A stretch of 64,000 nucleotides of DNA from an uncultured virus (IMG/VR IMGVR_UViG_3300002038_000007) (IMGVR_UViG_3300002038_000007), one strand, 5' to 3'; shown: positions 2,784 through 62,266, numbered from the stretch's first letter. Notes: a model not told the origin generated them from the letters alone. Numbers and translations: made by a program.

Positions 2784-4384
2784 TGGTTGCCCAGTCCGTT
2801 TTTGGGCCTGACGTCACTCAGATTGCTGATCCAACCGGCAACAAGAGAATTCCTATTGGCAGCTCCGCAACGGGGCCAAAAGAATTTGTTACGCCGGATC
2901 AAATTGCAGCGTTGGCGCTTGGCGGCACAACAGCCCTTGAGGGTTGGTTTAGCGTCAAAGAAACGCCAGGCAATGCCGCTGGCAATGGTGTGGCGGATGA
3001 CACGTCGGCCATTCAGGCAGTGATCGATGCGGCGCCTGAAGGTGCTGTTATTTACTTCCCTGTTGGCATTTACTCAGTCAACAGATTGAACGTGCCTTTT
3101 CAGAAGTCGCTTTCGTTCGTGGGCGCCAGTGTTCAAGGTTCTGTCCTTCGTTCGCGCTCGGTTGGCATCGACATTTTCCATTCCGATCGGGGCACAGGCA
3201 ATGCCCAGGACCGGTTCACCACCCAGCATTTCTATAAGAATTTACGGCTAGAACTGAACCTGCCTGAGAACGGCCCAGACACCGCGCCAAACTTCAACCG
3301 CTGCACCATTGAGGGCTTGGCGGTTGGCTGTGCGGCCATCGCTTACGAGACGTCAGCTCTTCCTTCCTCAGCAACGCCGGGCCAAATCGCCGTTTCCTGG
3401 CCTAATACGTTCGGCCGCGCTGAAGACATCATCGTTCAAGCCATCGACACCAATGATGGTGGCCGGATGAACTCTTGCGCGGTATTTATCTCCGGCTCGG
3501 CCTATGGCTGGGATTTCATGAACTTCGAGCTTCATGACATCTCTCATGGCTATGTTGAGACAGCGCCATTCATTCGCCGCTGCACGGTCAACACAAGTTC
3601 CAATACCTTGTCGCACTCGGGCGGGACCTATCCTAGCAATGCTCAGCTGACCGTTGCTCAGCACAGCGCAGAAGGTTCCCTGGCCTCTGGGGTAACGCGG
3701 TTCAGTGATTACTTTGCGCGGAATTCAAGCAGTGGCTCTTTGCAGCTAAGCACGTCGGCTGGCGGCGGAGCGGTCAATATCAGCAGCGCCGGCACCGCTG
3801 ACTTCTACATTTATGCTCGCGATCAGACTGCTGTGGTGGTGGCGCCTGACGGTTCCTCGATTATCAACTGGACCCAATATGGCGGTCGATCGGTGTTTAA
3901 CCTGTCGTCCCCGGAAAACAAGCTCATCCTGCGCTCGGACAGCTACCAGATTTCGGTTTCTCTTCTGGCCTGTCGGGCGTTCCCGAATAGCTCACGTCCG
4001 TTTGGCCTGACAAACAACTTCATCTGCATCTACTCGGAGAGCCCGCAAGGTCAGGCAACGCCTCCAAATCAGGCGCGCGATCCGTTTGTGATCATGGAAG
4101 GCCGTGTGGTGAATGTGAACGGCCTGCAAATCCGCGGCGCTGAACAGGGAACAGGGCGGCCAAGGATCGAGGTTGGCCAAACTGGCAGCCAAGTCTTCGG
4201 TATTCATATGATCAGCAACCTAAGCAACCAAGCCAACAGGCAGCCCGAGCTGGTGGTATCCGGCAATGGCAATCAGGTAGCGGCCACCATGCATCCTGCT
4301 TGTGTTGTCTCCAATACCGGGTCCAACAATAAAATCTTCGCTGTACGCGATGACAACGGCGCGACGGTTCTTGACACCTACTAA
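2783..4384 (+). CDS. Tailspike/depolymerase, pectate-lyase-like right-handed beta-helix
   Basis: AAGNGVADDTSAIQAVIDAA...VIYFPVGIY is the classical N-terminal pectate_lyase_3 motif. Confidence 0.8.
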   Translation: MVAQSVFGPDVTQIADPTGNKRIPIGSSATGPKEFVTPDQIAALALGGTTALEGWFSVKETPGNAAGNGVADDTSAIQAVIDAAPEGAVIYFPVGIYSVNRLNVPFQKSLSFVGASVQGSVLRSRSVGIDIFHSDRGTGNAQDRFTTQHFYKNLRLELNLPENGPDTAPNFNRCTIEGLAVGCAAIAYETSALPSSATPGQIAVSWPNTFGRAEDIIVQAIDTNDGGRMNSCAVFISGSAYGWDFMNFELHDISHGYVETAPFIRRCTVNTSSNTLSHSGGTYPSNAQLTVAQHSAEGSLASGVTRFSDYFARNSSSGSLQLSTSAGGGAVNISSAGTADFYIYARDQTAVVVAPDGSSIINWTQYGGRSVFNLSSPENKLILRSDSYQISVSLLACRAFPNSSRPFGLTNNFICIYSESPQGQATPPNQARDPFVIMEGRVVNVNGLQIRGAEQGTGRPRIEVGQTGSQVFGIHMISNLSNQANRQPELVVSGNGNQVAATMHPACVVSNTGSNNKIFAVRDDNGATVLDTY

Positions 4385-17910: not shown

Positions 17911-18534
17911 ATGGCTGTCTCGCTGCGTATAAAAAAGTCGACAACAGCTGGCAATGTTCCGGCTTCACTTGATATCGGTGAAATCGCCGTTAACGAAGCT
18001 GATGAGCTGTTGTTCTATCGAGACAGTGCGGGTGAGGTTCAAGCGCATGATCTCGCTCCTCGATTTTACATCCCCATTTCCGGTCGAATTTACCTGCAAA
18101 CCAATGAGTATAACGGGTTTTCAGCTCTAGGGCCTTATGTTCAGAATCACAATAATGATCTTGGCAATGCGAATGCTGCATTCAATCCCAATCGCAATGC
18201 AACTGGGTTTTCTTTCCCACACAACATGACGGTGGAGCGTCTTTATGGGGACTTTCGAAACAACAATGTTGGCGCCCCTGCCTGGTCATTTGTCGTTTGG
18301 AAGCAGCTCAAAACCGAAGATAGCACTGTGGTCACAAATACGGTGCTATGGCAAGATTCAGATGACTTTCGAAACTATGCCGACAATTTACCGCACAAGA
18401 TCGATCAGACTATCGACCAACCATTAGCGGCGGGTGAAATGTTATCGCTCGCAGTGAGAGCTGCGATAAACAACAACACTGAATATGTCTACCCTCTTTC
18501 ACTGAGTTTTGTTTTAAAACGGGACTTTAGCTGA
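17911..18534 (+). CDS. Fibre/receptor-binding protein (Mtd-type N-terminus)
   Basis: IKKSTTAGNVPASLDIGEIAVNEADELLFY. Confidence 0.65.
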   Translation: MAVSLRIKKSTTAGNVPASLDIGEIAVNEADELLFYRDSAGEVQAHDLAPRFYIPISGRIYLQTNEYNGFSALGPYVQNHNNDLGNANAAFNPNRNATGFSFPHNMTVERLYGDFRNNNVGAPAWSFVVWKQLKTEDSTVVTNTVLWQDSDDFRNYADNLPHKIDQTIDQPLAAGEMLSLAVRAAINNNTEYVYPLSLSFVLKRDFS

Positions 18535-19022
18535 TGAACGCTCGCCAACTGAAGGACAAGCTTCGCCGTGACATTCGCGACGAGATTCTTGCGATTGATC
18601 CTGACGCTGAGATTACCGATGTTGCCATTGTGTACTGGCAGGATATTGATTGGCGAAGCCATATCAATGGCATTTATTCGGCGATCGATCGGCGCTATGT
18701 AGACACAATGTCAGCTCGCACGATTAAGGCGATGCATCAGCGCATCGATGCTTTGGTAAGCGCCTATAGAGCTGATAAAGAGAACGTACTGGTTGATGAG
18801 ACAGATTACCGTGGTTTAACCATCTACCTCGACCGGGAGGGCGAAGGAGCGGGCGCCATTCAGCCCCAAGGCGGGAGCCCTATTGCTCTCGATGAGGCTT
18901 TTGACGCGGTCTATGAGCTCCTTGATGTGCAGGCGCGAAAGATAGAATCTATGCAACAAGAGCTGAACCGATTCAAGGTGGCTGCTCAGCAGTTAGCGTT
19001 GTCGCTGTCGGAACCGGGTTGA
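18534..19022 (+). CDS. Hypothetical protein with C-terminal coiled coil
   Basis: Coupled 162-aa ORF ending the structural operon. Confidence 0.55.
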   Translation: MNARQLKDKLRRDIRDEILAIDPDAEITDVAIVYWQDIDWRSHINGIYSAIDRRYVDTMSARTIKAMHQRIDALVSAYRADKENVLVDETDYRGLTIYLDREGEGAGAIQPQGGSPIALDEAFDAVYELLDVQARKIESMQQELNRFKVAAQQLALSLSEPG

Positions 19023-19048
19023 CGCATCGTCTCTGGCTCCATTATGGT
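19019..19048 (+). promoter_or_regulatory. Sigma70-type promoter, tRNA module 1
   Basis: TTGACG (19019-24), 18 nt, TATGGT (19043-48); leader ATG 7 nt downstream, so probably a leaderless transcript. Confidence 0.65.
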
Positions 19049-19054
19049 GAGCCA

Positions 19055-19126
19055 ATGATCACTAGCCGCACGTCTTTGTTACGACTCCTGACCGGACCAA
19101 CTTTCGGATCGGAGACTCGCGACTAG
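19055..19126 (+). CDS. Leu-sensing attenuator leader peptide MITSRTSLLRLLTGPTFGSETRD
   Basis: TTG TTA CGA CTC CTG at 19076-90, followed by antiterminator, terminator and three tRNA-Leu genes. Confidence 0.8.
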   Translation: MITSRTSLLRLLTGPTFGSETRD

Positions 19127-19153
19127 TTTTCTAGAACATCGTTGAGCAGGGCA

Positions 19154-19179
19154 GCCTCCGATCTTTCGGGGGCTTTTTT
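19154..19179 (+). terminator. Intrinsic terminator (attenuator 1)
   Basis: GCCTCCGA-TCTT-TCGGGGGC-TTTTTT. Confidence 0.85.
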
Positions 19180-19185
19180 GTGTTG

Positions 19186-19262
19186 GCTGGAGTAGCCCAA
19201 TTGGCAGAGGCACTGGTTTTAGGCACCAGTCAGTGTCGGTTCGAATCCGACCTCCAGTACCA
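19186..19262 (+). tRNA. tRNA-Leu(TAG), short variable loop
   Basis: Cloverleaf; CTGGT-TTTAGGC-ACCAG; encoded CCA. Confidence 0.9.
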
Positions 19263-19339
19263 GCCCAACTGGCGCAATTGGCAGACGCGGCAAGCTTAAA
19301 CCTTGTCTGTTCTCGGTTCGATCCCGAGGTTGGGCACCA
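19263..19339 (+). tRNA. tRNA-Leu(TAA), short variable loop
   Basis: GCAAG-CTTAAAC-CTTGT; CCA. Confidence 0.9.
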
Positions 19340-19340
19340 T

Positions 19341-19417
19341 GCCGAGGTGACGCAATTGGTAGACGTGCTGGCCTCAAAAACCAGATGGTGAGGGTTCGAC
19401 TCCCTCCCTCGGCACCA
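19341..19417 (+). tRNA. tRNA-Leu(CAA), short variable loop
   Basis: CTGGC-CTCAAAA-ACCAG; CCA. Confidence 0.9.
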
Positions 19418-19423
19418 ATCTTC

Positions 19424-19453
19424 TTGACATGATAAATTCCGTCACTCTATATT
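19424..19453 (+). promoter_or_regulatory. Sigma70-type promoter, tRNA module 2
   Basis: TTGACA (19424-29), 18 nt, TATATT (19448-53). Confidence 0.75.
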
Positions 19454-19458
19454 TCCGA

Positions 19459-19534
19459 CGTGCTGTGGAGCAGTGGCTAGCTCGTCAGGCTCATAACCTG
19501 AAGGTCGTCGGTTCGAGTCCGACCAGCGCAACCA
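19459..19534 (+). tRNA. Initiator tRNA-fMet(CAT)
   Basis: C1:A72 mismatch; TCAGG-CTCATAA-CCTGA; CCA. Confidence 0.9.
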
Positions 19535-19551
19535 ACATGAGGTGTATCGAC

Positions 19552-19617
19552 GTGAACGCAATCTACTATTCGTGCTCATGGTTTAGTTCCGAAAAGGGGC
19601 TGCTGACGCACGTGTAA
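19552..19617 (+). CDS. Tyr/Ser/Cys/Trp/Phe-sensing leader peptide MNAIYYSCSWFSSEKGLLTHV
   Basis: GAGGTG RBS then GTG (in-frame ATG also at 19537); nine consecutive control codons TAC TAT TCG TGC TCA TGG TTT AGT TCC. Confidence 0.85.
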   Translation: MNAIYYSCSWFSSEKGLLTHV

Positions 19618-19647
19618 ACGCTTGATCACCATACACCGGCAGTCAGA

Positions 19648-19681
19648 GGTCCCCTCGGAGAAATCCCTGGGGGCCTTTTTT
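19648..19681 (+). terminator. Intrinsic terminator (attenuator 2)
   Basis: GGTCCCC-TCGGAGAAATCCCT-GGGGGCC-TTTTTT. Confidence 0.85.
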
Positions 19682-19689
19682 GTGTCAAC

Positions 19690-19764
19690 GCCTCTGTAGC
19701 TGAGAAGGATTAGCGCCGGTTTGAAGAACCGGAGAGGGCGGCTCGATACCGTCTGGGGGCACCA
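19690..19764 (+). tRNA. tRNA-Phe(GAA)
   Basis: CCGGT-TTGAAGA-ACCGG; CCA. Confidence 0.88.
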
Positions 19765-19784
19765 AACAAGGAGAGTAAAGCGAA

Positions 19785-19857
19785 GGGTAGGAGCCAGGGC
19801 AGTGGGCACGGTCTGTAAAACCGACGCCAGAGGGTTCGAGACCTTCCCTACCCACCA
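19785..19857 (+). tRNA. tRNA-Tyr(GTA), short variable loop
   Basis: CGGT-CTGTAAA-ACCG; acceptor GGGTAGG/CCTACCC; CCA. Confidence 0.85.
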
Positions 19858-19858
19858 T

Positions 19859-19932
19859 GCGGGATTCGTCTAATGGCAAGACAGCGGTCTCCAAAACCGA
19901 CAATGGAGGTTCGATTTCTCCATCCCGTGCCA
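19859..19932 (+). tRNA. tRNA-Trp(CCA)
   Basis: CGGT-CTCCAAA-ACCG; G73 CCA. Confidence 0.9.
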
Positions 19933-19938
19933 AATTAA

Positions 19939-20024
19939 GGATGGTTGGCAGAGTGGTAATGCAGCGCCCTGCTAAGGCGTACAAGGGCAACCTTGCGTTG
20001 GTTCGATCCCAACACCATCCGCCA
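19939..20024 (+). tRNA. tRNA-Ser(GCT)
   Basis: GCGCC-CTGCTAA-GGCGT; long variable arm; CCA. Confidence 0.92.
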
Positions 20025-20025
20025 T

Positions 20026-20101
20026 GATCCGGTAACGCAGAGGCCGACGTGCCTGGCTGCAAACCAGGAATACGCCGGTTCGACTCCGGCCCGGATCTCC
20101 A
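20026..20101 (+). tRNA. tRNA-Cys(GCA)
   Basis: CCTGG-CTGCAAA-CCAGG; U73 CCA. Confidence 0.9.
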
Positions 20102-20102
20102 A

Positions 20103-20189
20103 GGAGGAGAGGTGTATTGGCGGCATAACCGGTCCTGAAAACCGTCCGACCGCAAGGTCGTGTGGGTTCGATTCCCACCTCCTCCGCCA
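20103..20189 (+). tRNA. tRNA-Ser(TGA)
   Basis: CGGT-CCTGAAA-ACCG (C at position 33); long variable arm; CCA. Confidence 0.85.
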
Positions 20190-20199
20190 ACATTTTTGA

Positions 20200-20229
20200 T
20201 TGACAGTCTTATCAACTTATGCGTAACAG
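20200..20229 (+). promoter_or_regulatory. Probable promoter, tRNA module 3
   Basis: TTGACA at 20200-05 within imperfect palindrome TTGACAGTCTTATCAA; weak -10 (TAACAG). Confidence 0.55.
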
Positions 20230-20243
20230 TCATTATCTCTCTC

Positions 20244-20381
20244 ATGGCGAGACCAGCGATGACTATATTTTGCACACGAACAGTCGTCACAATAATCGGG
20301 CAGACCAGCGTCGTCCGTACCAATAAACGCGCCATGACGATGAAGACCATTCGAAATATCCGGCGACATAGACGCGGCTAA
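20244..20381 (+). CDS. Arg/His/Lys/Met/Thr/Ile/Val/Asn-rich leader peptide, 45 aa
   Basis: MARPAMTIFCTRTVVTIIGQTSVVRTNKRAMTMKTIRNIRRHRRG; 35 of 45 residues match the downstream tRNA set. Confidence 0.75.
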   Translation: MARPAMTIFCTRTVVTIIGQTSVVRTNKRAMTMKTIRNIRRHRRG

Positions 20382-20389
20382 TCAACTAG

Positions 20390-20465
20390 CTCCGCGTCGC
20401 CAACTGGACAGGCAGCCAGTCTTCTAAACTGGTTTGTGTGGGTTCGAATCCCGCCGCGGAGTCCA
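20390..20465 (+). tRNA. tRNA-Arg(TCT)
   Basis: CCAGT-CTTCTAA-ACTGG; CCA. Confidence 0.9.
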
Positions 20466-20466
20466 T

Positions 20467-20543
20467 GGTGGCCGTAGCTTAGTGGTAAAAGCGCTGGATT
20501 GTGACTCCAGAGATCGTCGGTTCAAATCCGATCGGCCACCCCA
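20467..20543 (+). tRNA. tRNA-His(GTG) with G-1:C73
   Basis: CTGGA-TTGTGAC-TCCAG; G-GTGGCCG/CGGCCAC-C-CCA. Confidence 0.92.
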
Positions 20544-20549
20544 ATCACC

Positions 20550-20625
20550 CCGCTCGTAGCTCAACAGGAAGAGTCGATGAGTCCTAATCATCAGGTTGCA
20601 AGTTCGAGTCCTGCCGGGAGCCCCA
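20550..20625 (+). tRNA. tRNA-Arg(CCT), acceptor stem defective (possible pseudogene)
   Basis: GATGA-GTCCTAA-TCATC; 5' strand GCTCG versus 3' CGGGAGC looks like a 2-nt deletion. Confidence 0.65.
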
Positions 20626-20630
20626 ATCAT

Positions 20631-20706
20631 GCCCATGTAGCTCAACTGGATGAGCAGCGGTCTACGAAGCCGCGTGATGGAGGTTCGAGTCCTCTCATGG
20701 GCTCCA
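20631..20706 (+). tRNA. tRNA-Arg(ACG)
   Basis: GCGGT-CTACGAA-GCCGC; CCA. Confidence 0.9.
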
Positions 20707-20747
20707 TCCACGAAACACGTCCACGAAAAGATCAATTCGTGGATATC

Positions 20748-20821
20748 GGGCCACAAGCATAGTGGCGATGCGTCGGCCTCTTAACCCGATGAGCACAGTT
20801 CAATTCTGTGGTGGCCTTCCA
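20748..20821 (+). tRNA. tRNA-Lys(CTT)
   Basis: TCGGC-CTCTTAA-CCCGA; CCA. Confidence 0.85.
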
Positions 20822-20846
20822 GAAAGGAGAATGTGACGTTTAATGA

Positions 20847-20920
20847 TCCTGCGTAGCTCAATGGTAGAGCGGGTCGCTCATAACGATTTGACGGTGGTTC
20901 GATTCCACCCGCAGGTACCA
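20847..20920 (+). tRNA. tRNA-Met or Ile2 (CAT)
   Basis: GGTCG-CTCATAA-CGATT; CCA; Met versus Ile2 not resolvable by eye. Confidence 0.85.
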
Positions 20921-20921
20921 C

Positions 20922-20998
20922 GCCCTCGTAACTCAGTGGTCAGAGTAGCTGTTTTGTAATCAGCCGGTCGCGGGTTCGAATCCTCGCCGAGGGCTCCA
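20922..20998 (+). tRNA. tRNA-Thr(TGT)
   Basis: GCTGT-TTTGTAA-TCAGC; CCA. Confidence 0.9.
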
Positions 20999-21001
20999 TT
21001 T

Positions 21002-21075
21002 GCTGGCGTAGCTCAATAGTAGAGCATTCGGCTGATAACCGGACGACGGTGGGGCAGAACCATCCGCCAGTACCA
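21002..21075 (+). tRNA. tRNA-Ile(GAT)
   Basis: TTCGG-CTGATAA-CCGGA; atypical T-loop GGCAGAA; CCA. Confidence 0.85.
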
Positions 21076-21076
21076 T

Positions 21077-21154
21077 AGAAGGGTAGCTCAGCCTGGCCAG
21101 AGCTGCGGTGTTACATACCGCGAGTCGTCGGTTCGAATCCGGCCCCTTCTACCA
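21077..21154 (+). tRNA. tRNA-Val(TAC)
   Basis: GCGGT-GTTACAT-ACCGC; CCA. Confidence 0.9.
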
Positions 21155-21156
21155 GT

Positions 21157-21234
21157 TCCAGGCTGGGGGAATGGTAGACCCGGCTGGCTGTTAACCAGCG
21201 TCTTTTCTCGGTTCGAGTCCGAGGCCTGGAGCCA
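21157..21234 (+). tRNA. tRNA-Asn(GTT)
   Basis: GCTGG-CTGTTAA-CCAGC; CCA. Confidence 0.9.
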
Positions 21235-21247
21235 ATTTTTCTGATGA

Positions 21248-21323
21248 GGGTGTGGGGCCGCACGGCGACGGCAAGATCCTTTTAAGTTCTAGGCAGCAGG
21301 TTCGACTCCTGTCACACCCTCCA
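21248..21323 (+). tRNA. tRNA-Lys(TTT)
   Basis: AGATC-CTTTTAA-GTTCT; acceptor GGGTGTG/CACACCC; CCA. Confidence 0.85.
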
Positions 21324-21603
21324 ATGCTCGGCACATGAGGATGACACGGCGCGACGGTTTTCTTCTGCCGTTGACGAGACGTTCGATGTAGTCTGGGGAG
21401 TAACCTAGAAGTTCGCCGACAGGCGCATAATCGCTTTTGATGCCGGGATGACCTGTGTCGTAATTATGTTCTAAAAACCATTCTCGAAAATTGAATTGCT
21501 CTGGACCGCCCGGTTCCTCGCCGGGCTCGATATCGTCGTATGCCCCACCGGGTCGCCCGCTCGGCTGTTCGGTAGGGTTGGTCGCGGCTGGTTGCGGTTG
21601 CAT
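21289..21603 (-). CDS. XRE-type HTH protein with Gln/Pro/Ala/Glu/Gly/Asp-rich N-terminus (putative autorepressor of tRNA module 4)
   Basis: AAGGA RBS; VGELLGYSPDYIERLVNGRRKPS HTH; last gene of the minus-strand tRNA operon. Confidence 0.8.
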   Translation of the reverse strand: MQPQPAATNPTEQPSGRPGGAYDDIEPGEEPGGPEQFNFREWFLEHNYDTGHPGIKSDYAPVGELLGYSPDYIERLVNGRRKPSRRVILMCRALEGVTGVEPAA

Positions 21604-21622
21604 GACGGTTTCCTTCGAGGGT

Positions 21623-21699
21623 TGGCAGGTCGGGCGGGATTCGAACCCACGATCCTGAATTCAAAGTCCAGAGCATTAGGCCAACTATGCTACCGACCA
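21623..21699 (-). tRNA. tRNA-Gln(TTG)
   Basis: Reverse complement: CTGGA-CTTTGAA-TTCAG; CCA. Confidence 0.9.
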
Positions 21700-21711
21700 G
21701 CAAGAGGGGAT

Positions 21712-21786
21712 TGGCAGCCGCACTAGGACTTGAACCTAGAACATCCACATTCAGAGTGTGGCGCTCTACCATTGAGCTATACGGCA
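21712..21786 (-). tRNA. tRNA-Gln(CTG)
   Basis: CCACA-CTCTGAA-TGTGG; CCA. Confidence 0.9.
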
Positions 21787-21796
21787 TTACCAAGAA

Positions 21797-21870
21797 TGGA
21801 GCGGGAGACGGGAATCGAACCCGTGTCATCAGTTTGGAAGACTGCGGCTCTACCATTGAGCTACACCCGC
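21797..21870 (-). tRNA. tRNA-Gly(TCC)
   Basis: CAGT-CTTCCAA-ACTG; GCGGG acceptor, U73 CCA. Confidence 0.92.
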
Positions 21871-21923
21871 TTAGCTTCCGCCGCCTCCTGAGTAGCTGCC
21901 CCATATGATAAGGCGGCGGAATT

Positions 21924-22001
21924 TGGAGCTGCTGACCGGATTCGAACCGGCATTTTCCAGAGTGAAAATCTGGAGTCCTAGTCCTGTTAGACGACAGCAG
22001 C
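21924..22001 (-). tRNA. tRNA-Glu(TTC)
   Basis: CCAGA-TTTTCAC-TCTGG; CCA. Confidence 0.9.
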
Positions 22002-22006
22002 AAAAC

Positions 22007-22082
22007 TGGCGAGCGTAAGGGGATTCGAACCCCTGTTGTCGGATAGACAATCCGAAGTCCTAGGCCTCTGGACGATACGCCC
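22007..22082 (-). tRNA. tRNA-Asp(GTC)
   Basis: TCGGA-TTGTCTA-TCCGA; CCA. Confidence 0.9.
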
Positions 22083-22087
22083 GTTGT

Positions 22088-22163
22088 TGGAACCGCCAAC
22101 CGGATTTGAACCGGTGTTTTCAGGTTGAGAACCTGATGTCCTTGACCGCTAGACGATGGCGAT
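22088..22163 (-). tRNA. tRNA-Glu(CTC)
   Basis: TCAGG-TTCTCAA-CCTGA; CCA. Confidence 0.9.
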
Positions 22164-22164
22164 T

Positions 22165-22240
22165 TGGTCAGGGTGGCTGGCACTGCCCCAGCGACCCCCT
22201 GCTTCCAAGGCAGGTACTCTGCTAGCTGAGCTACACCCTG
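22165..22240 (-). tRNA. tRNA-Pro(TGG)
   Basis: CCTGC-CTTGGAA-GCAGG; atypical T-loop GGCAGTG; CCA. Confidence 0.88.
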
Positions 22241-22241
22241 T

Positions 22242-22316
22242 TGGTGGATCTGGCAGGATTCGAACCCGCAACCTTCGCTGTGCAAAAGCGCTGCTCTCCC
22301 GTTGAGCTACAAACCC
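22242..22316 (-). tRNA. tRNA-Ala(TGC)
   Basis: CGCT-TTTGCAC-AGCG; G3:U70; CCA. Confidence 0.92.
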
Positions 22317-22329
22317 GATGATGTGGAGA

Positions 22330-22358
22330 TACTTAACGGACAAAATCCGTTAAGTCAA
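22330..22358 (-). promoter_or_regulatory. Promoter of tRNA module 4 with overlapping palindromic operator
   Basis: Minus strand TTGACT, 17 nt, TAAGTA; perfect inverted repeat ACTTAACGGA-N5-TCCGTTAAGT (22331-55) spans it. Confidence 0.8.
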
Positions 22359-22381
22359 TTATGGAATGATCGGCTGGTGAT

Positions 22382-22630
22382 CTAAGTATCTAGCTCTATC
22401 GTCACCATCATACCTTCAATCGGCAGGATCACAGGCGGGCTCTTAGGCACACGCCACAGCGCGCCCCTGCTATTCAAAATGAACCAGAACCCATCGACGA
22501 ATTTGTAGGTGGTGCCATCGCGGCATGGTGGCTTTGGGAGAGGCGTTGGGGGCGATGCGAGCGACGCGGCGCAGACTGGTATGGATGCGAAACCGATGGG
22601 AGCGGATCGAAGGAAGTCTCGACGGTTCAT
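22382..22630 (-). CDS. Small hypothetical protein with Tat-like N-terminus
   Basis: MNRRDFLR; ATGA overlap with upstream gene. Confidence 0.5.
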   Translation of the reverse strand: MNRRDFLRSAPIGFASIPVCAASLASPPTPLPKPPCRDGTTYKFVDGFWFILNSRGALWRVPKSPPVILPIEGMMVTIELDT

Positions 22631-23346
22631 GGGCTGTTATTAAAACAGTAAATGCATCGGTCTAATCCAATGGCGATCTCTAACACAGCAACGTCTTTGT
22701 TTTTTATTTGCGTAGGAAAGTCGGTTCGCTTTGAAATGGAGCACAGCTCCATCCACTTTTCGCCATTGTTGACTTCGACGTCCATTGTCAAGGTCGAGTA
22801 AGAGGGCAGCCGGTCGGATTCAATAATCCTTGTTGGCAATCCAAGGGCTTGATGAAACATCGCCTCAGCGTGTGGCCAAAATGACCCGTGGTAGTCATTT
22901 CCGCTATCGGCAGAGTAAGCACATTGAAATTCGAGCTGGTAGAATTCCTTCAGTCTCATATGCTTCACGGGCTGGATTTGCTCTCGTCGGAAGGACTTCC
23001 CGTATTGCCAGCAGCAGTATGGCAAACGGACTTTGTCATGTGACTCTAGTCGCTGCATCATATGAGCATAAGACGACGCGGTTGTTTCGGGGCGAAGGAT
23101 TAACCAGTGATCATGCTCGTCGGCGACGCGTTGATCAAAGACATCGGTCTCTGCGTCATAGGCGTCAGACAACAAGTTGACCGGCATAAGCAATGGTGCT
23201 TCGATTTGTTCAAATGACCATGCCTGATTCATGCCTAACAGGCGATCACGAACTGATATCGAAAAGAAGTCGATCAACCAGTTTCTGGTCTTGATGTCCT
23301 TCTCTGACCATGTCACCAGCCCGTTGATATCGAAAGTATTATCCAT
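22627..23346 (-). CDS. Class II aminoacyl-tRNA synthetase catalytic core (GlyRS alpha2-like), no anticodon-binding domain
   Basis: LRPETT, motif 2 QYGKSFRRE...RLKEFYQLEFQ, motif 3 LEIAIGLDR; only 239 aa. Confidence 0.85.
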   Translation of the reverse strand: MDNTFDINGLVTWSEKDIKTRNWLIDFFSISVRDRLLGMNQAWSFEQIEAPLLMPVNLLSDAYDAETDVFDQRVADEHDHWLILRPETTASSYAHMMQRLESHDKVRLPYCCWQYGKSFRREQIQPVKHMRLKEFYQLEFQCAYSADSGNDYHGSFWPHAEAMFHQALGLPTRIIESDRLPSYSTLTMDVEVNNGEKWMELCSISKRTDFPTQIKNKDVAVLEIAIGLDRCIYCFNNSP

Positions 23347-23836
23347 CAGGGAGATCCACCAACGCCTTTAACTTCTGGGCAAGAAACTCACATTCTGCGG
23401 TAACGTAGGCAAGATCACGATAAGGAGGCGGGAGGGGTTGGAAAGACAAGTGTTGCATCATCTCCCTCTCTCGAGAAACCATAGCTGGTAGCAAATCGGA
23501 ACCATGGGCGCAGTCAAACCCAAACCACCAAACATGATCGGATTCGCCTTCGCCTGGAATATGGCAGATAGAGTTCTTTTCATCACCTTCGGAACAAGGG
23601 CCGCTGAAGGTGAGTCCACCGTGAACATCGAAGTCGATATCGGCGTAGTTTTTTTCAAAAAACGGATGCCTTCGCTCGACACCAACGTAGCCGCACAAAC
23701 CGCCGAAACGATTGCGCACGATCAGACAAGGGAGCCCCGTCTCCTTGTCCTTCCATTGTTTTTTGTCAGGCTCGTCCTGCCAAGCGCCGTCCCCCCAGTC
23801 TGACTTATCCATCGTTTGATAGGTTATCGTTTCCAT
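23339..23836 (-). CDS. Conserved phage hypothetical protein
   Basis: LCGYVGV...HP...VHGGLTFS...WWFGFDCAH motif recognised from phage proteins. Confidence 0.7.
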   Translation of the reverse strand: METITYQTMDKSDWGDGAWQDEPDKKQWKDKETGLPCLIVRNRFGGLCGYVGVERRHPFFEKNYADIDFDVHGGLTFSGPCSEGDEKNSICHIPGEGESDHVWWFGFDCAHGSDLLPAMVSREREMMQHLSFQPLPPPYRDLAYVTAECEFLAQKLKALVDLPDG

Positions 23837-29973: not shown

Positions 29974-30606
29974 TCAAGTTTTTTCGGGTCCGTGCAGGCG
30001 ACAATGGGACTCCCCTGTCAATCGTGGCTGGCCACACGGCTTCCCGTTTTTTTTGGGTCGTCCGCATAAGTGCTCCGCGGACATTCCATTTTTTTTAGCC
30101 CCCTCCTTCTCTGGCTGATCACGTCCTTTTGCTGGTTCCTGATCATCGTGGCGCTTGCAGCAGGTCATGCCAGCGCGCGCATGATCAGCACATTGGCCCT
30201 TGCCCTGTAGTAGTTGCCCAGCACAACGAGGCCGCTTGTTATAATTTGGGCGCCGACTATAGGAGCGTTTTGCTGAAGGGGGCCTTGGCGCTGGCTTCCC
30301 ATACACTGAATGATAGCAGGCTGCACAGAGACCATCTGCGGCAGCATACATCGGACATGGGTTACCTTTAGCTGTAATCCCACAACATTTGACGCGGTCG
30401 TTTGTTTTCTCTGTTGGTTTTGGTGACTGATTTGCGATGAGTTTTGGCGCCGGTTTTTCTTCCTCAATAGCATTCGTAATGTTGATGGTAGGAGTCGCTC
30501 CGCTTGGCGCTTGTTCAGCGGAAACTTGAGCGGCTTGAAGAAGCTGTGAGAAGCCTATCTCTCTTCGCAGATAAGCCAGCTTGGCGAACTCAACTAGATC
30601 ATTCAT
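29974..30606 (-). CDS. Protein with three Cys/His Zn-binding repeats (CxGxxKxGxPC...CxxH)
   Basis: CCGITAKGNPC...CAACYH; CAGQLLQGKGQC...CKRH; CGRPKKNGKPC...CRLHG. Confidence 0.65.
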   Translation of the reverse strand: MNDLVEFAKLAYLRREIGFSQLLQAAQVSAEQAPSGATPTINITNAIEEEKPAPKLIANQSPKPTEKTNDRVKCCGITAKGNPCPMYAAADGLCAACYHSVYGKPAPRPPSAKRSYSRRPNYNKRPRCAGQLLQGKGQCADHARAGMTCCKRHDDQEPAKGRDQPEKEGAKKNGMSAEHLCGRPKKNGKPCGQPRLTGESHCRLHGPEKT

Positions 30607-31283
30607 GCCGCTTGCCTAAGCTTCCATGACTTGAGCTTGCCCTTCAGTTTAGGATCAATGCTCTCCATGACGCCTTTGATCTCATCCATCATATCGTTCG
30701 CAACATCGCCAAGATTTCCATAGAGGTTTTCATTAATGGCGCGGCCCCGATCATGATAGCTCCGATAGGAGCGTCGCTCTGGAATGGCGGTGTCCAGAAA
30801 AGGGACGTTAAAGCCGTTGAAATAGTCCTTGGCTTTGTTCTCTTCAATATCTGAGCCAAAGCCAACCAAGGCTATACGGGCGATCGCTATCTCTCCTTTC
30901 TGTCTCTCCAGCGCTTTGTAGGTAAGCGCTGCCGGTTGGAACTGATCATTTTCGCCAGGACCTACAGGGATGATAATCAGATCGCCTTGCTTGGCGAGCT
31001 CTCCTGTGTTTGCTTTAGCGCGGGGTTTCAGGTCGGCCACAACATGATCATATTTCTGCCCATCGGCGATGCAAGTCTCTACGCTGTTGTAGGGTTCGCA
31101 CCAAATCCTAGGTTCAACATCGGCATCAATGCGCCGTGCTGCCCATTTTAAGGTGGTGCCCTGTTCCCAGTCGAGATCAGCGAGGAGAACGCTGAAGTCG
31201 TTGCCCGAGAGCGCCACGGCCATGGCCCTCGCCAGAGTCGACTTTCCAGCGCCCCCTTTCATGGAAGCAAATAGAATATTCAT
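30603..31283 (-). CDS. parA: ParA-family partition ATPase
   Basis: Deviant Walker A KGGAGKST, DLDWEQG, DLIIIPV. Confidence 0.88.
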   Translation of the reverse strand: MNILFASMKGGAGKSTLARAMAVALSGNDFSVLLADLDWEQGTTLKWAARRIDADVEPRIWCEPYNSVETCIADGQKYDHVVADLKPRAKANTGELAKQGDLIIIPVGPGENDQFQPAALTYKALERQKGEIAIARIALVGFGSDIEENKAKDYFNGFNVPFLDTAIPERRSYRSYHDRGRAINENLYGNLGDVANDMMDEIKGVMESIDPKLKGKLKSWKLRQAA

Positions 31284-32083: not shown

Positions 32084-33124
32084 TTATGAGATCTCATCGC
32101 CAGTCTCTTTGTATTTTGGATTGAGGATCTTCACCATCAGGCGCGTGCCGTCTTCAGCTCGTCGATCAACGGAAGGCCGTATAACGATGCCTTCCTTGAT
32201 GTTATCTTCTGTCCCACTGACTTGTTCTCGACCTTTTGCCAGCTCGCGAATCTTGGCTTCGTTGAAGGGGCCTTCGTAGAGGATGGGCACCCATAATTTC
32301 AGTAGCGTTTCGGATACGTCTTCCATTCTAACCGATTCTCCATCGGCTCGAATATCGAAGATCCGTAGCGTTGGCATGCTCTGGCCATATTTGAAGGCCT
32401 GGGCTGGAATAACCTCACCCAAAAGCTGAACCGAGTGCTTAATCATTCCTTGGAGATTATTGATACGCGCCATTTCCCTCAGATAGCCCATCAACCCAAC
32501 ATTCTTCATCGCTGTCCAATAGATGTTTCGATCGCTTTCTAGGATATGGAGTCCCTTGCCTGCCATACCTTTGGAGGTGATGAAAACTCCACCATCAGGA
32601 GTGAACGTGCAGTTGATCTGTGTTCCGTGGATCTTCTCTGTGACGACGACCGCTTCACCATCCTGGAAATCATCTCGATAGATGCCAAATTGCTCAACAT
32701 CGTGCTTAGAAAACACGATACCATCAGGAAACGGCTCGCATAGGCCAGCCATGTCTTGAGAGATAGGAGGTTCGTACTTTGTGATGCCCAAGCGCCCGGC
32801 CAGGCATTCACCATTGTCAGCCTGGGCAACGAAGTCAGGAAGATCAGGCAAGGCGATTGTTACACCTTGAGACAGCTCTCCACGAAGCCGAACAGCCTTC
32901 ACGCGATCTTTGTTTGGGCCAACAAGGTAGTTTTTAAATGGCTCGGCAATATCATCAGGCAAAACCGATTTTTCCGGCGCAAAGACGACAACATCGCCGA
33001 TCACAAATGTGTCTTTCCGGGCAACGACCTGGAACGATCCCAGCTTGATGATATCCAGAGAATCCGCGTTGTAGTGCTTATTGATTCGTGTCACTTCGAG
33101 TTTAGCAACGGACCATTCACTCAT
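32084..33124 (-). CDS. RNA ligase, DRB0094/Rnl5-like family
   Basis: N-terminal OB-like module (HYNADSL, LRGELSQG); motif I TEKIHGT; KEGIVIRP; KILNPKY. Confidence 0.88.
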   Translation of the reverse strand: MSEWSVAKLEVTRINKHYNADSLDIIKLGSFQVVARKDTFVIGDVVVFAPEKSVLPDDIAEPFKNYLVGPNKDRVKAVRLRGELSQGVTIALPDLPDFVAQADNGECLAGRLGITKYEPPISQDMAGLCEPFPDGIVFSKHDVEQFGIYRDDFQDGEAVVVTEKIHGTQINCTFTPDGGVFITSKGMAGKGLHILESDRNIYWTAMKNVGLMGYLREMARINNLQGMIKHSVQLLGEVIPAQAFKYGQSMPTLRIFDIRADGESVRMEDVSETLLKLWVPILYEGPFNEAKIRELAKGREQVSGTEDNIKEGIVIRPSVDRRAEDGTRLMVKILNPKYKETGDEIS

Positions 33125-35038: not shown

Positions 35039-36097
35039 TCACCCCTTCCTCCATTTCTGCGCCGCCTCAGCAGCTTCTCGAACATGTGATCTACGACGAT
35101 GGGCATAGCGCCTGGTCGTCGAGAGCGATGAGTGGTGCAACGCATCCTGCACCAATGCCACGTCACCCGTAGCGTCCATCAGGGATTGGGCGAAGGTGTG
35201 GCGAAGATCATGGAAACGGACATCCGGTAGACCTGCATCGCATCGCGATCGTTCCCAAATGCCCTTGATGGATCTGATCTGGGCGCCGTCTCGGGTAAAC
35301 ACCGGCCCGAGATCCTTTGGGCCTATGCGGGTCAGGATTTCCATCGCCCATTCTGTAAGCTCCACCGGATTTGACTTTTTCCCTTTTCCGATCGGAACAA
35401 TCTTTTGTTTTTCGAGATCGACATCCCGCCATTGCAAAGAGAATATAGGTGCTCGCCTAAGCCCGGTGGCGAGGGCGAACTCAACGATATCAGCAAGCCA
35501 GGGAGGGCAGGCGTTGATCAAAAGCCGCTGCTCACTCGTCGATAGATTGCGCTCAACCGTTTCCGCCTCAGGCCTCATCAAGGCTTCCCAGGAGACCGAC
35601 GGAACGTCTTCCCATTGCCAAAGACGCTGGGCTTTTCTCATAGCGCCCCGGAGCACTGCCAGGCGACGGTTTATCGTCGCGTTCGTGGGCAGCTTTGGCT
35701 TGTTCGATCGTCGATCCATCACGACCTGCTGACGAGATCGGTTATAAACCGGAGTCGTTCGCCATTTTGTGACGGCTTCGGAAATGCGAGATGTGGTCAA
35801 ATCGGCAATACGAGAGTGATCTCCGAATTCATCAGTCATGGTCTCCAAGTGCTGACCGATGGTTCGCGCCCATGCCAGACCTTCAGCGTGCTCCGTCCAA
35901 TATTTTTCCATCATGTTAGAGAATGTATGTTGGCCCGCCGCTTCGGCTGCGTCTTCTGCTTTGAGCCTTTGTTCCAAGGCCTGGACGTCCCGCTTGCGCG
36001 GGTAGTCTTTCGCTTTGACCGTTTGCTGACAGCGCGTGCCATCTCCCCGATAGAATCGGATGATCCAATTTCCGTTTTTTCTTTTATAGACCGGCAT
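35039..36097 (-). CDS. int: Tyrosine recombinase (phage integrase)
   Basis: ATGLRR, RFHDLRHT, LHHSSLSTTRRY catalytic motifs. Confidence 0.93.
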   Translation of the reverse strand: MPVYKRKNGNWIIRFYRGDGTRCQQTVKAKDYPRKRDVQALEQRLKAEDAAEAAGQHTFSNMMEKYWTEHAEGLAWARTIGQHLETMTDEFGDHSRIADLTTSRISEAVTKWRTTPVYNRSRQQVVMDRRSNKPKLPTNATINRRLAVLRGAMRKAQRLWQWEDVPSVSWEALMRPEAETVERNLSTSEQRLLINACPPWLADIVEFALATGLRRAPIFSLQWRDVDLEKQKIVPIGKGKKSNPVELTEWAMEILTRIGPKDLGPVFTRDGAQIRSIKGIWERSRCDAGLPDVRFHDLRHTFAQSLMDATGDVALVQDALHHSSLSTTRRYAHRRRSHVREAAEAAQKWRKG

Positions 36098-38137: not shown

Positions 38138-38539
38138 TTAAGCCGATGATATGCTAGAAGGCATTATTTCTTGATTTTGATCAGCAGCGACCTCCGGTGG
38201 ATGTGGCGTTGCCTTCTTGGTAAGCACCTCCTCGATCGTCAGTTTTTTCCAGCCAGCAACCAAGGCAGAATATTGTGCCCATTCTGGCGAATAAGCTTTA
38301 ATAATGTCCCAAAAATTGACAATCCTCCCTTCGTCGGAAAGAGAATAGCCGCCAGTCGGACCTTTTTTAGAAACAAGCCAACCTTTTGAAACCATGTCTT
38401 GGAGGATTGGTTCATAATAACGGGCCGCTCTGTTATTTGCTGCCGCGATGACATCCCGCTGTGTAAGCGCCGTGCCGTCTTGGATACCTCGCAAAGTAAC
38501 CAAAACTTCGCATGCACTCAGAACCTTTTTTCCAATCAT
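38138..38539 (-). CDS. Rrf2-family transcriptional regulator
   Basis: YYEPILQDMVSKGWLVSKKGPTGGYSL; no Fe-S Cys triad. Confidence 0.8.
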   Translation of the reverse strand: MIGKKVLSACEVLVTLRGIQDGTALTQRDVIAAANNRAARYYEPILQDMVSKGWLVSKKGPTGGYSLSDEGRIVNFWDIIKAYSPEWAQYSALVAGWKKLTIEEVLTKKATPHPPEVAADQNQEIMPSSISSA

Positions 38540-38542
38540 GAT

Positions 38543-40055
38543 TTAATCCAGAGCTGGAATGTTAGCCAAGCGGTCATTAAGAGCATCCATTCGGCTTTGG
38601 ATGTTACGCAAAGAGGATGTGGTTGGTCCAAACCTCTCCTCGACAAGAGATCCAACTTCGCTGAGGGCGCTTCTAAGCAAGCCTTCGTTTAGGGAACCAG
38701 CGTCTTGGTGCGCCTGAAGGCCGTTGATCGCCGTTTGAATTCCAAGACCGGCATCTTCCAGCGCCGCAATGGAGGATTTCAATTCTTCATAGGTAGCTTG
38801 AGCCCTGGAAGATGCGTTCCGTAGCTCAACCACGTTCTTCGCCAAACCCGCAATCGCCATTGCTTGATCGGCGTTCCGGCTGTAGGTGGACCAAGCCAAG
38901 CCTGCGGCAATGGCGGCGGCGACAAGGGAGCCAATGACCCAAAAGGGTGTGTCCCCGCTTCCTTCTGGCCGGATCCCATGATAGGGGGCTGGCCAATTGT
39001 TGGCTTCTTTTTGTTGGTTTGTCTCAATGTTCATTGCAGTTTATGGCCTTATCGATCGGGTTTGGGATTTTCTTATCTCGACTGGTTAGGGGGAGGTGAT
39101 AGGGTTCCGTTCCTGTTGCCCAAGGCGTGGGTGGTTGTTGTCGTTCCTCGATATGCTCTCTAATGCGAAGAAACAGCGCTGCCAGCGCTCGCTCGATCAA
39201 AGGTGAATGTTGATTTTCAGCAAAAGCGGCTGCTGGCAGCAAAAAGAGGGAGATGGCCAGAAAGACCCTCACCACTAAATTGGGTTTGTCTGAGCGATAA
39301 TCACGAGCGCTACATCAAACTTTGGCGCTTCGCTAATTGACGACAAACCTAATTCATCCATGCGCGCATGATTGGCCCAAATGACGTAGTCATCGTCGAT
39401 CTTTCTGGTCACAGCCAAAAGTTTCTGGTTGCGATAGACCTCCCAGCACTGGCCCCATGGTGTGGTGACCGGACGAGCCTCGAGACCGTATCCGTAACGC
39501 GCGGTACGGATTGGAACCGGTGTATCCCTGGCAGGCTCATTTGGCCTGCGCCAATAGCGCTCATGACGCGACGGAAAGGTTATTGAGGTCGGCAGATGCG
39601 GTCTTGAGGCCGTTGTGTGCCATCACCGCTATGGCCCGCAGGCTTGGCGGTGTGTTGGCATCATCAAGAAGGGCGGCCACCGCCAGTCTCGCTTCAATGG
39701 TTTTGATTTCAACGTCAGAAAATAAGCCAGTGGCTTTGCGGCTGCCATAGGTGTGGCCGCCATAGGTTAGGGCGCACTGGGTTAAGGCGTCCTCGATGGC
39801 TGCATCGAGACTAGGCGCGTAGGTGTAGATATTGTCTGGGTGCGTTTCGCTGATGCTTGGGTGATGGTGGTTGCCAAGATGCCAGTAGTAACGAGGGGTA
39901 CCTCCGTGGCCCAGATTGTCGGTCTTGACAAATCCGAGTTGCCCACGGTCGGTGATGTTTTCATAAGGCCCTGTGATGGACCCGTCGATCTCAACGGTCC
40001 ACGGCCCGCGGCTCACAGGCGAGTCCATAATGCTACAGCCTGGCAAAAATTGCAT
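38543..40055 (-). other. Leftward early operon hypothetical genes (38543-39034 TM plus coiled coil, 39024-39275, 39561-40055)
   Basis: Co-oriented ORFs downstream of an AT-rich promoter region near 40100-40140. Confidence 0.5.
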
Positions 40056-58776: not shown

Positions 58777-59016
58777 CTAATCTAAGGCCCCTGCCAGATC
58801 GATCTTCGCCGCCTCGACCTCTTCAGTGGCGGCGATCGGCGGCTTCCCTGCTATGAACTGCTCAACACACACAAACTGATGGGCACCAAGCGTTTGGAAG
58901 TGCTTCAGGAGCTTTGCCCAATCACGCTCGTCGATTTGGTCAAGCAACCGGCAGACAGTTCGATCGCCGACCTCATCAAGCGTGACGGTAACTCGACGTT
59001 TCTTAGCCATGGGCAC
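58777..59016 (-). CDS. ParR-like adaptor/DNA-binding protein
   Basis: KKRRVTVTLD N-terminal strand; overlaps parM 3' end. Confidence 0.55.
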   Translation of the reverse strand: MPMAKKRRVTVTLDEVGDRTVCRLLDQIDERDWAKLLKHFQTLGAHQFVCVEQFIAGKPPIAATEEVEAAKIDLAGALD

Positions 59017-61895: not shown

Positions 61896-62266
61896 CCGTC
61901 GCACGGATTACTTTCAGAAGCAGGCCTAGAACACGGTTTGTCATCAAGTGGCCCTTTCTCTACGGCTTTTGGGCGACGACAACGCTCAAGCTTGATGTCC
62001 CTGATCGCTACGCCGATGAGATGTTTGTCCAAGGTCACAACAAGACCACGCTGTGCGTTGTGAAAGCTGGATTCGGCGGCAGAATGATTCGGGTCACGCT
62101 CAAAAAACTTATGCGGAAACGAGGCCTTAAACTTTGGGCATGGAGAGAAGCCACGCTGTGGCTCGCCATTCGAGCGATCGATACTGCGCTCGATAAAAAA
62201 AAGCAGGAGCTTGACGGGCAGCGCTTCAGTGAGACGGCAACTGACATTGGCCGAGAGATCACGTGA
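61892..62266 (+). CDS. Hypothetical protein
   Basis: ATGA-coupled 124-aa ORF. Confidence 0.5.
   Translation: MTVARITFRSRPRTRFVIKWPFLYGFWATTTLKLDVPDRYADEMFVQGHNKTTLCVVKAGFGGRMIRVTLKKLMRKRGLKLWAWREATLWLAIRAIDTALDKKKQELDGQRFSETATDIGREIT

Follow-up and report, generated by a model that had tools for sequence, protein, structure and literature searches.

Reading frames matched to their tRNA blocks in an uncultured virus, and a possible feedback control of tRNA supply

Layout of the tRNA array

The uncultured virus IMGVR_UViG_3300002038_000007, analysed here over a window of 64,000 nucleotides (nt; all positions are coordinates of this window), carries an array of 29 transfer RNA (tRNA) genes that together cover all 20 amino acids. 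The genes fall into four blocks, hereafter units 1 to 4, and each block is accompanied by a reading frame in which codons for the amino acids of that block recur (Table 1). These frames are three short open reading frames (sORFs) ahead of the Leu, Phe-to-Ser and Arg-to-Lys tRNAs of units 1, 2 and 3, and the beginning of the open reading frame (ORF) of a putative helix-turn-helix (HTH) protein behind the tRNAs of unit 4. The match in composition is confirmed, and in three of the four units it exceeds by far what chance would give. The leaders of units 1 and 2 have the full sequence anatomy of a leader-peptide attenuator, which supports ribosome-sensing control.

ARAGORN called 26 of the tRNA genes (19186-22316) and the Rfam tRNA model added three, so that the union of the two methods agrees with the gene count and amino-acid coverage of the preliminary description of this DNA. 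A gene was taken as detected if called by ARAGORN or if scored by the Rfam model above its cut-off of 29 bits, and 28 of the 29 were detected in this way. Two of the additional genes, tRNA-Ile-GAT (21002-21072; 52.3 bits) and tRNA-Pro-TGG (22168-22240, minus strand; 48.7 bits), have an unusual T-loop, GGGGCAG, which is probably the reason why ARAGORN misses them. The third, a short Tyr-like gene of 70 nt with a GTA anticodon (19785-19854), was missed by ARAGORN and scored just under the Rfam cut-off, at 28.3 bits, and tRNA-Asn (21157-21234) was found by ARAGORN and not by Rfam. The same 17-nt T-arm, likewise uncalled by ARAGORN, recurs within tRNA arrays on three large, unrelated phage contigs from IMG/VR, which measure 160-223 kb (L014, L015 and L021; ~4001-4017).

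The division into four units, also proposed in the preliminary description, follows the gaps between the blocks: 155 nt before the Phe block, 200 nt before the 11-gene block running from Arg to Lys, and 299 nt before the convergent block on the minus strand. Within the array there are also gaps of 163 nt ahead of the three Leu genes and of 41 nt ahead of the tRNA-Met that heads unit 2. This tRNA-Met is the first product of the strongest promoter-like site of the array, P2. The second tRNA with a CAT anticodon (20847-20920, plus strand), with a T1/T72 mismatch and three G-T pairs in its anticodon stem, may be of Met or Ile2 type. In one sequencing run (X1), a lower-depth second variant of the array (a 641-nt contig, 21574-22116) joins 21706 to 21797 and 21870 to 22007, so that the unit 4 genes for tRNA-Gln-CTG and tRNA-Glu-TTC appear to be missing from it.

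Table 1. Positions of the tRNA blocks, matched reading frames, promoter-like sites and RNA structures of the array, in order along the window
Feature	Position	Strand	Description
P1	19019..19048	+	TTGACG-18-TATGGT; consensus scan, 9/12 positions; expected start ~19055, at the sORF1 ATG
sORF1 (unit 1)	19055..19126	+	23 codons, MITSRTSLLRLLTGPTFGSETRD; Leu codons TTG TTA (CGA) CTC CTG at 19076-19090 (LLRLL)
Attenuator 1	19085..19183	+	region 1, 19085-19095 (CUC CUG codons and following bases); region 2, 19103-19113
Terminator 1	19153-19183	+	hairpin 19153-19174, then T-run; strong intrinsic terminator
tRNA-Leu TAG, TAA, CAA (unit 1)	19186..19417	+	ARAGORN, Rfam
P2	19424..19453	+	TTGACA-18-TATATT; consensus scan, 11/12; strongest promoter-like site; expected start at the tRNA-Met 5' end
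tRNA-Met CAT (unit 2)	19459..19534	+	C1/A72 mismatch (initiator-like); ARAGORN; heads unit 2, upstream of attenuator 2
sORF2 (unit 2)	19537..19617	+	26 codons; YYSCSWFSS at 19564-19590
Attenuator 2	19566..19683	+	region 1, Ser-Cys-Ser-Trp-Phe-Ser-Ser codons; region 2 from ~19596 (GGGGCUGCUGAC...); region 3, terminator 5' arm
Terminator 2	19645-19683	+	hairpin 19645-19678, then T-run; strong intrinsic terminator
tRNAs Phe, Tyr-like, Trp, Ser-GCT, Cys, Ser-TGA (unit 2)	19690..20189	+	ARAGORN, Rfam
P3 candidate	20200..20229	+	TTGACA with poor -10 TAACAG; read from the sequence, not reported by the promoter scan
sORF3 (unit 3)	20244..20381	+	45 codons, 35/45 in set R/H/K/M/T/I/V/N
Hairpin of sORF3 last codons and tRNA-Arg	20371..20398	+	-13.9 kcal/mol; 15/2000 shuffles
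tRNAs Arg-TCT, His, Arg-CCT, Arg-ACG, Lys-CTT, Met, Thr, Ile, Val, Asn, Lys-TTT (unit 3)	20390..21323	+	ARAGORN, Rfam
HTH ORF (unit 4)	21289..21603	-	104 amino acids; tail residues 2-36, 28/35 in A/P/E/D/G/Q
tRNAs Ala, Pro, Glu-CTC, Asp, Glu-TTC, Gly, Gln-CTG, Gln-TTG (unit 4; transcription order)	21623..22316	-	ARAGORN, Rfam
P4	22330..22358	-	TTGACT-17-TAAGTA; fits simple promoter pattern

Reading frames matched to the tRNA blocks

Each spacer (S1-S4, for units 1-4) was scored for its best run of residues drawn from the amino-acid set of one block, over all three frames, and dinucleotide-preserving shuffles of the same spacer served as the control. For the cognate pairs of spacer and set, the observed score was reached by 1149 of 5000 shuffles for S1 with Leu, by 1 of 5000 for S2, and by none of 5000 for either S3 or S4; the 12 non-cognate pairs were all non-significant (lowest, 60 of 500 shuffles). 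The preliminary description is thus upheld on two leaders: YYSCSWFSS is present ahead of the tRNAs for Phe, Tyr, Trp, Ser, Cys and Ser, with the correction that sORF2 follows the tRNA-Met, and a frame rich in R, H, K, M, T, I, V and N precedes the 11-gene block. The codon variety that it had noted is likewise present, with 4 Leu, 4 Ser, 4 Thr, 3 Ile, 4 Pro and 5 Arg codons in use.

When the full 64 kb was scored in six frames, the highest-ranking segments for the sets of units 3 and 4 were precisely sORF3 and the HTH tail, and the unit 2 element was joint top for the unit 2 set. When the 20 amino acids were partitioned at random into sets of the same sizes, none of 20000 partitions reached the observed total (maximum 36.5, against 53), and the single units were equalled in only 3 (unit 2), 7 (unit 3) and 9 of 20000. 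This permutation of sensor composition against tRNA sets, which had been put forward as a check of the idea, therefore gives the same answer as the shuffles. The match extends to individual anticodons, since 26 of the 28 in the blocks have a strict-wobble cognate codon in their own ORF: all three Leu anticodons in sORF1, six of six in sORF2 and nine of 11 in sORF3, where Arg-CCT and Val-TAC are the exceptions.

Other phage tRNA arrays gave a different picture. In five named phages with large tRNA sets, no matched frame was found among 56 spacers (T5, 16; KVP40, 14; Bxz1, 11; CcrColossus, 6; Atu_ph07, 9), the lowest value being 120 of 1000 shuffles, whereas the same pipeline applied to this window gave 0 of 1000 for both S2 and S3. 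In these five phages the search of further arrays for matched sORFs, suggested at the outset, came back empty, and the contrast implies that the match is neither a general property of phage tRNA arrays nor an artefact of the test. With a 17-mer of the unusual T-arm as query, 11 IMG/VR loci were retrieved, with tRNA arrays on three contigs (L021 and L022 being parts of one contig), and 2 of 26 spacers on these contigs were at or below 50 of 1000. The stronger of the two, a run of five arginines in L015 (1 of 1000), was ruled out as a leader because a longer ORF, which has a GACGTA hexamer repeat, contains it in an alternative frame. The tRNAs of Rhizobium phage B1VFA and Roseobacter phage DSS3P8 are scattered.

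Logan contigs of four runs were aligned to the region, and one run from a different study (X2) contains a relative at ~86% identity. Its contig over 19534-19679, which spans sORF2 and the terminator stretch, has 15 changed letters and 6 gaps; among the changes listed for sORF2 are L23M, a stop codon altered from TAA to TGA and so kept, and changes past the stop, and the alignment offsets imply that 3 of 6 extra letters lie between 19603 and 19616, in frame. A second contig covers 20235-20632, 20602-20706 and 20845-21076. Among the changes listed for sORF3 are I8T, F9Q, C10I, R12H and I18T, all five non-synonymous, and 3 of 3 in-set positions among the listed changes remain in-set. None of the listed changes falls in the regulatory codons, which is no evidence that these are conserved. 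The sORF3 substitutions may be a weak hint of selection on composition.

Leader anatomy and possible modes of control

In units 1 and 2, the matched sORF is followed by a strong intrinsic terminator that ends 5 nt before tRNA-Leu and 7 nt before tRNA-Phe, respectively. The consensus scan reported no promoter-like site between either terminator and the first tRNA, and the Leu and Phe blocks can therefore be made only by read-through. The preliminary description had assigned a TTGAC- promoter to every unit; three of the four sites fit a simple promoter pattern, but that of unit 3 has a poor -10 element. The leader RNA can be folded into three mutually exclusive helices of similar energy (1:2, 2:3 and 3:4), with in silico values of -11.6, -20.0 and -20.6 kcal/mol in unit 1 and -17.5, -23.8 and -22.2 kcal/mol in unit 2. 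Region 2 of attenuator 1 is also a 9-nt complement of the terminator 5' arm at 19155-19163. In attenuator 2, the Ser-Cys-Ser-Trp-Phe-Ser-Ser codons themselves constitute the 5' arm of a hairpin, of which the 3' arm (~19596 onwards) pairs alternatively with the terminator 5' arm, and the leader folds more stably than its shuffles (z -2.94). Nascent transcripts cut before the terminator 3' arm, with a ribosome footprint placed on the cognate codons, adopt the 2:3 form in both units; for unit 1, that form is prevented when the footprint is placed on the stop codon instead.

These observations would be consistent with an array organised as tRNA-supply feedback units, a reading to which we assign a probability of about 0.55. 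In units 1 and 2, the promoter would drive a short leader ORF containing codons that are read by the tRNAs encoded behind it. A ribosome slowed on these codons would cover region 1, the 2:3 antiterminator would form, and transcription would enter the tRNA genes; a ribosome reaching the stop codon would instead cover region 2, allowing the terminator to form, and the tRNA block would not be made. Such a loop would be self-regulating, because what it yields is the tRNA whose supply it tests. The sORF1 ATG coincides with the expected start of the P1 transcript and the sORF2 ATG lies 2-3 nt past the 3' end of tRNA-Met, positions that would fit leaderless translation of both frames.

Unit 3 contains the best-matched element of the array. 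Its sORF would be a test frame of the same type, and its output step may lie in how the first tRNA is processed or folded, or may depend on Rho, or there may be none. The last codons of sORF3 include GACGCGG (20371-20377), which pairs with the 5' acceptor strand of tRNA-Arg (CCGCGUC), a gene that starts 9 nt past the sORF3 stop; in the minimum-energy fold this pairing displaces the acceptor stem of the tRNA-Arg cloverleaf.

In unit 4, the A/P/E/D/G/Q-rich N-terminus that had been described for the HTH protein is present (0 of 5000 shuffles), but it lies downstream of the tRNAs and is not a leader, and a different logic is therefore needed. The HTH gene directly follows the eight tRNAs on the same strand and has a GAAGGA Shine-Dalgarno sequence 7 nt before its ATG. 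The protein has three homologues at 59-67% identity, in which the tail composition is kept (34 of 45, 30 of 37 and 8 of 12 residues in the set, inserted stretches included). In the AlphaFold model, residues 1-38 are disordered and are followed by four helices, with a predicted local distance difference test score of ~85 at residues 61-90, and the best weak fold matches include Aca11, C.BclI and C.AhdI. A profile of the HTH alignment matched no solved structure in the PDB by sequence. Between the -35 and -10 elements of P4 lies a perfect 8+5+8 palindrome, TTAACGGA-N5-TCCGTTAA (22333-22353), which is unique in the window and is a candidate operator. We infer that the HTH protein would bind this palindrome and repress the operon from which it is itself expressed; its tail would draw on the tRNAs of unit 4, so that tRNA supply would set the level of the repressor. 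The last 35 nt of the HTH ORF (21289-21323) overlap the convergent tRNA-Lys-TTT gene; the homologues end ~6-9 residues earlier, and the C-terminal extension of the protein in the window may therefore be incidental.

Several results weigh against feedback control. The LLRLL run described ahead of the three Leu tRNAs is present in sORF1, but its enrichment is marginal and not significant alone: at least four Leu in five codons occurred in 803 of 10000 shuffles, and 27 windows of this kind occur across the six frames of the 64 kb. No convincing Shine-Dalgarno sequence was found at any of the three sORFs. The truncated folds of unit 2 give the 2:3 form without a ribosome as well, and the antiterminator statistics are modest; when the upstream segment was shuffled and a shuffle was counted if it reached both the observed energy and the observed arm pairing, 57 of 2000 did so for unit 1 (p ~0.03) and 24 of 2000 for unit 2 (p ~0.01). 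Full-length equilibrium folds keep the terminators as the minimum-energy structure under every ribosome block tried, and any switch would therefore have to be kinetic. The terminator of the trp attenuator is likewise the minimum-energy structure at equilibrium. Neither the terminator scan nor the folds gave a terminator behind sORF3, the unit 3 leader folds no better than its shuffles (z -0.5), and the offsets in the X2 relative hint at a one-letter indel before sORF3 codon 18. Upstream of the unit 4 block there is no matched frame (203 of 1000 shuffles). The Pfam HTH_31 score of the unit 4 protein, 24.9 bits, is under the cut-off of 27, and its best Foldseek matches, all to HTH domains of Xre, Cro, controller or Aca type, have E values of 0.27 or worse. 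The earlier proposal that ribosome stalling induces the matching tRNAs thus agrees with the attenuator anatomy of units 1 and 2, but units 3 and 4 do not fit it as it was stated.

The absence of a terminator in unit 3 would be accommodated if the sORFs are translated sensors that act not on transcription termination but on the polycistronic tRNA precursor. The progress of the ribosome would alter how this precursor is processed, how it folds or how stable it is, for instance by freeing the acceptor stem of the first tRNA, and the hairpins would be mainly processing or stability elements. The pairing between the end of sORF3 and the tRNA-Arg acceptor strand, which displaces the cloverleaf, would be in keeping with such an output, as would terminators that stay at minimum energy whichever ribosome block is applied. 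Units 1 and 2, in contrast, have canonical terminators of hairpin and T-run with matched 2:3 alternatives, and we know of no precedent for ribosome-controlled tRNA processing. We regard this explanation as unlikely.

We also consider it improbable that the frames are non-regulatory, that is, untranslated spacers, or else micro-proteins together with a regulator that has a low-complexity tail, with terminators that insulate and leak constantly. The match would then need another cause, such as a local sequence bias acting together with the sorting of tRNA genes by first codon base. The blocks are indeed largely sorted in this way, as read from their anticodons (U-starting codons, A-starting codons, and G- and C-starting codons), S3 read on its antisense strand likewise gives a high score with the unit 3 set (16.5, ranking third in the window), disordered tails rich in P, E, G, Q, A and D are common, and the lack of Shine-Dalgarno sequences at the sORFs would be expected. 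Composition as the cause is nevertheless excluded by the dinucleotide shuffles and random partitions; moreover, three separate elements rank first or joint first in the window for their own sets, the control phages are null, and the terminators leave no room for a promoter ahead of the blocks.

Very unlikely, finally, is a direct binding of tRNAs by the leader RNAs, with codon-like triplets pairing to anticodons in the manner of a T-box specifier and no need for translation: cognate triplets do lie in or beside the terminator-switching region and the ribosome-binding signals are weak, but the spacers match no T-box or other Rfam family (E <=1), the folds have no T-loop-binding platform or discriminator-like element, and the triplets lie in one frame bounded by an ATG and a stop that is kept as TGA in the X2 relative.

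The feedback reading could be extended to a four-channel homeostat of decoding capacity for all 20 amino acids, composed of two attenuators, a terminator-less ORF coupled to how the first tRNA folds or is processed, and a repressor throttled by its own tail, which together would rebuild tRNAs removed by infection or by host anticodon nucleases. In this complete form the proposal is tentative and somewhat doubtful.

Relatives, genomic setting and comparison with known systems

Three proteins of the window and the HTH alignment retrieved no related locus from viral contigs and none from genome contigs, and the one metagenome locus found (L001) is without tRNA genes. A translated search (tblastn) with the HTH protein found no counterpart among GenBank phages and plasmids, a structural protein had no phage match, and matches to the primase-helicase were at or below 29% identity. 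A degenerate sORF2 pattern had 0 matches in viral and genome contigs, and a 25-mer from tRNA-Ile had 0 in genome contigs. Nucleotide searches (blastn) with the array returned matches to single tRNAs only, and no protein homologue was found for a 73-residue frame that contains an sORF. The 121 matches of a second sORF-containing frame, of 62 residues, were rejected, as all of them fall on its translated tRNA-Met part.

By its gene content the element would be a novel phage or phage-plasmid: the window has genes for tail-fibre proteins, an integrase, ParA, a ParM-like actin, a primase-helicase and a T4CP-like ATPase. The ParA-type ATPase (30603-31283), the tyrosine integrase (35039-36097) and the ParM-like actin (59003-60001) are all on the minus strand, and replication-relaxation-like and TrwB-like proteins are encoded at 60897-63999 (plus strand); all of these accompany the tail-fibre genes. 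Adjoining the array, a gene on the minus strand (22627-23346) encodes a stand-alone class II aminoacyl-tRNA-synthetase core of 239 residues (Pfam tRNA-synt_2b, 39.3 bits), of which a 99%-identical copy is found on a 15-kb Joint Genome Institute (JGI) contig. Its nearest homologues are 'aminoacyl-tRNA ligase-related' proteins of ~249 residues from Rhizobium, Devosia, Mesorhizobium and Agrobacterium (52-57% identity), which points to a host among the Hyphomicrobiales. An RNA ligase gene (32084-33124, minus strand; Pfam RNA_ligase, 65.3 bits, with an N-terminal PHA02142 OB-fold) could serve in tRNA repair; the neighbouring genes that were tested included no polynucleotide kinase. A gene at 38543-39034 (minus strand), with a weak SLATT_1-like match of 20 bits that is below the cut-off, adjoins an Rrf2-type regulator (38138-38539, minus strand; 39.9 bits), and the two could form a defence-related pair.

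Phage tRNA genes are usually viewed as constitutive codon-usage helpers or as spares against tRNA-cleaving defences. If the feedback reading is true, phages would measure their decoding capacity and restore it on demand, and one of the oldest known regulatory mechanisms would gain a new class of target. Leaders of this kind would also provide a sequence signature predicting which tRNAs a phage expects to lose. The phage response to tRNA-targeting immunity could then be tested with simple reporters, and synthetic biology could make use of such compact sensors of several amino acids.

Our literature search found no paper on the control of tRNA genes, phage or cellular, by leader peptides or attenuators, although older work in subscription journals could be missed; a passage on a 'tRNA operon' in PMC3082878 concerns proM supercoiling. 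The arrangement is probably a known mechanism with a new target, unpublished as far as this search reached. Phage tRNA arrays have been presented as a counter to host tRNA-cleaving defences, including PARIS AriB (PMC12409363). Like the systems described there, the present array is a large phage tRNA set that could replace cleaved host tRNAs, here with an RNA ligase gene nearby; unlike the present proposal, that literature deals with the tRNAs themselves and not with control of their synthesis on demand.

The small HTH protein encoded at the end of the unit 4 operon and the perfect palindrome in the promoter, to which its binding is predicted, resemble the arrangement of small HTH autorepressors that act on a palindromic site of their own promoter, namely the controller C proteins of restriction-modification systems and the anti-CRISPR-associated Aca proteins. 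They differ from these in that the operon consists of tRNA genes and that the protein has a disordered tail of 35 residues composed of the amino acids of those tRNAs. T-box riboswitches share with the leaders the sensing of tRNA status by codon-anticodon logic and the control of a terminator ahead of translation-related genes. Unlike the leaders described here, T-boxes bind uncharged tRNA without a ribosome and regulate genes for aminoacyl-tRNA synthetases or amino acids; the T-box covariance model gave no match, and an Rfam scan of 18000-23500 at E <=1 gave only tRNAs and chance-level matches.

The closest parallels are the enterobacterial attenuators trp, his, leu, thr and ilvGMEDA, in which the leader peptide is rich in the regulatory codons and of which thr and ilv are multivalent. 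With these attenuators the array shares a codon-enriched short leader ORF, overlapping helices (1:2, 2:3 and 3:4) and an intrinsic terminator placed ahead of the genes under control, and with thr and ilv the sensing of several amino acids by one leader. It departs from them in its phage setting, in having up to eight amino acids per leader and one unit without a terminator, and in leaders that appear to be leaderless or to start at a tRNA processing site. Most fundamentally, the regulated genes are tRNA genes and not biosynthetic enzymes, so that the product would directly relieve the stall.

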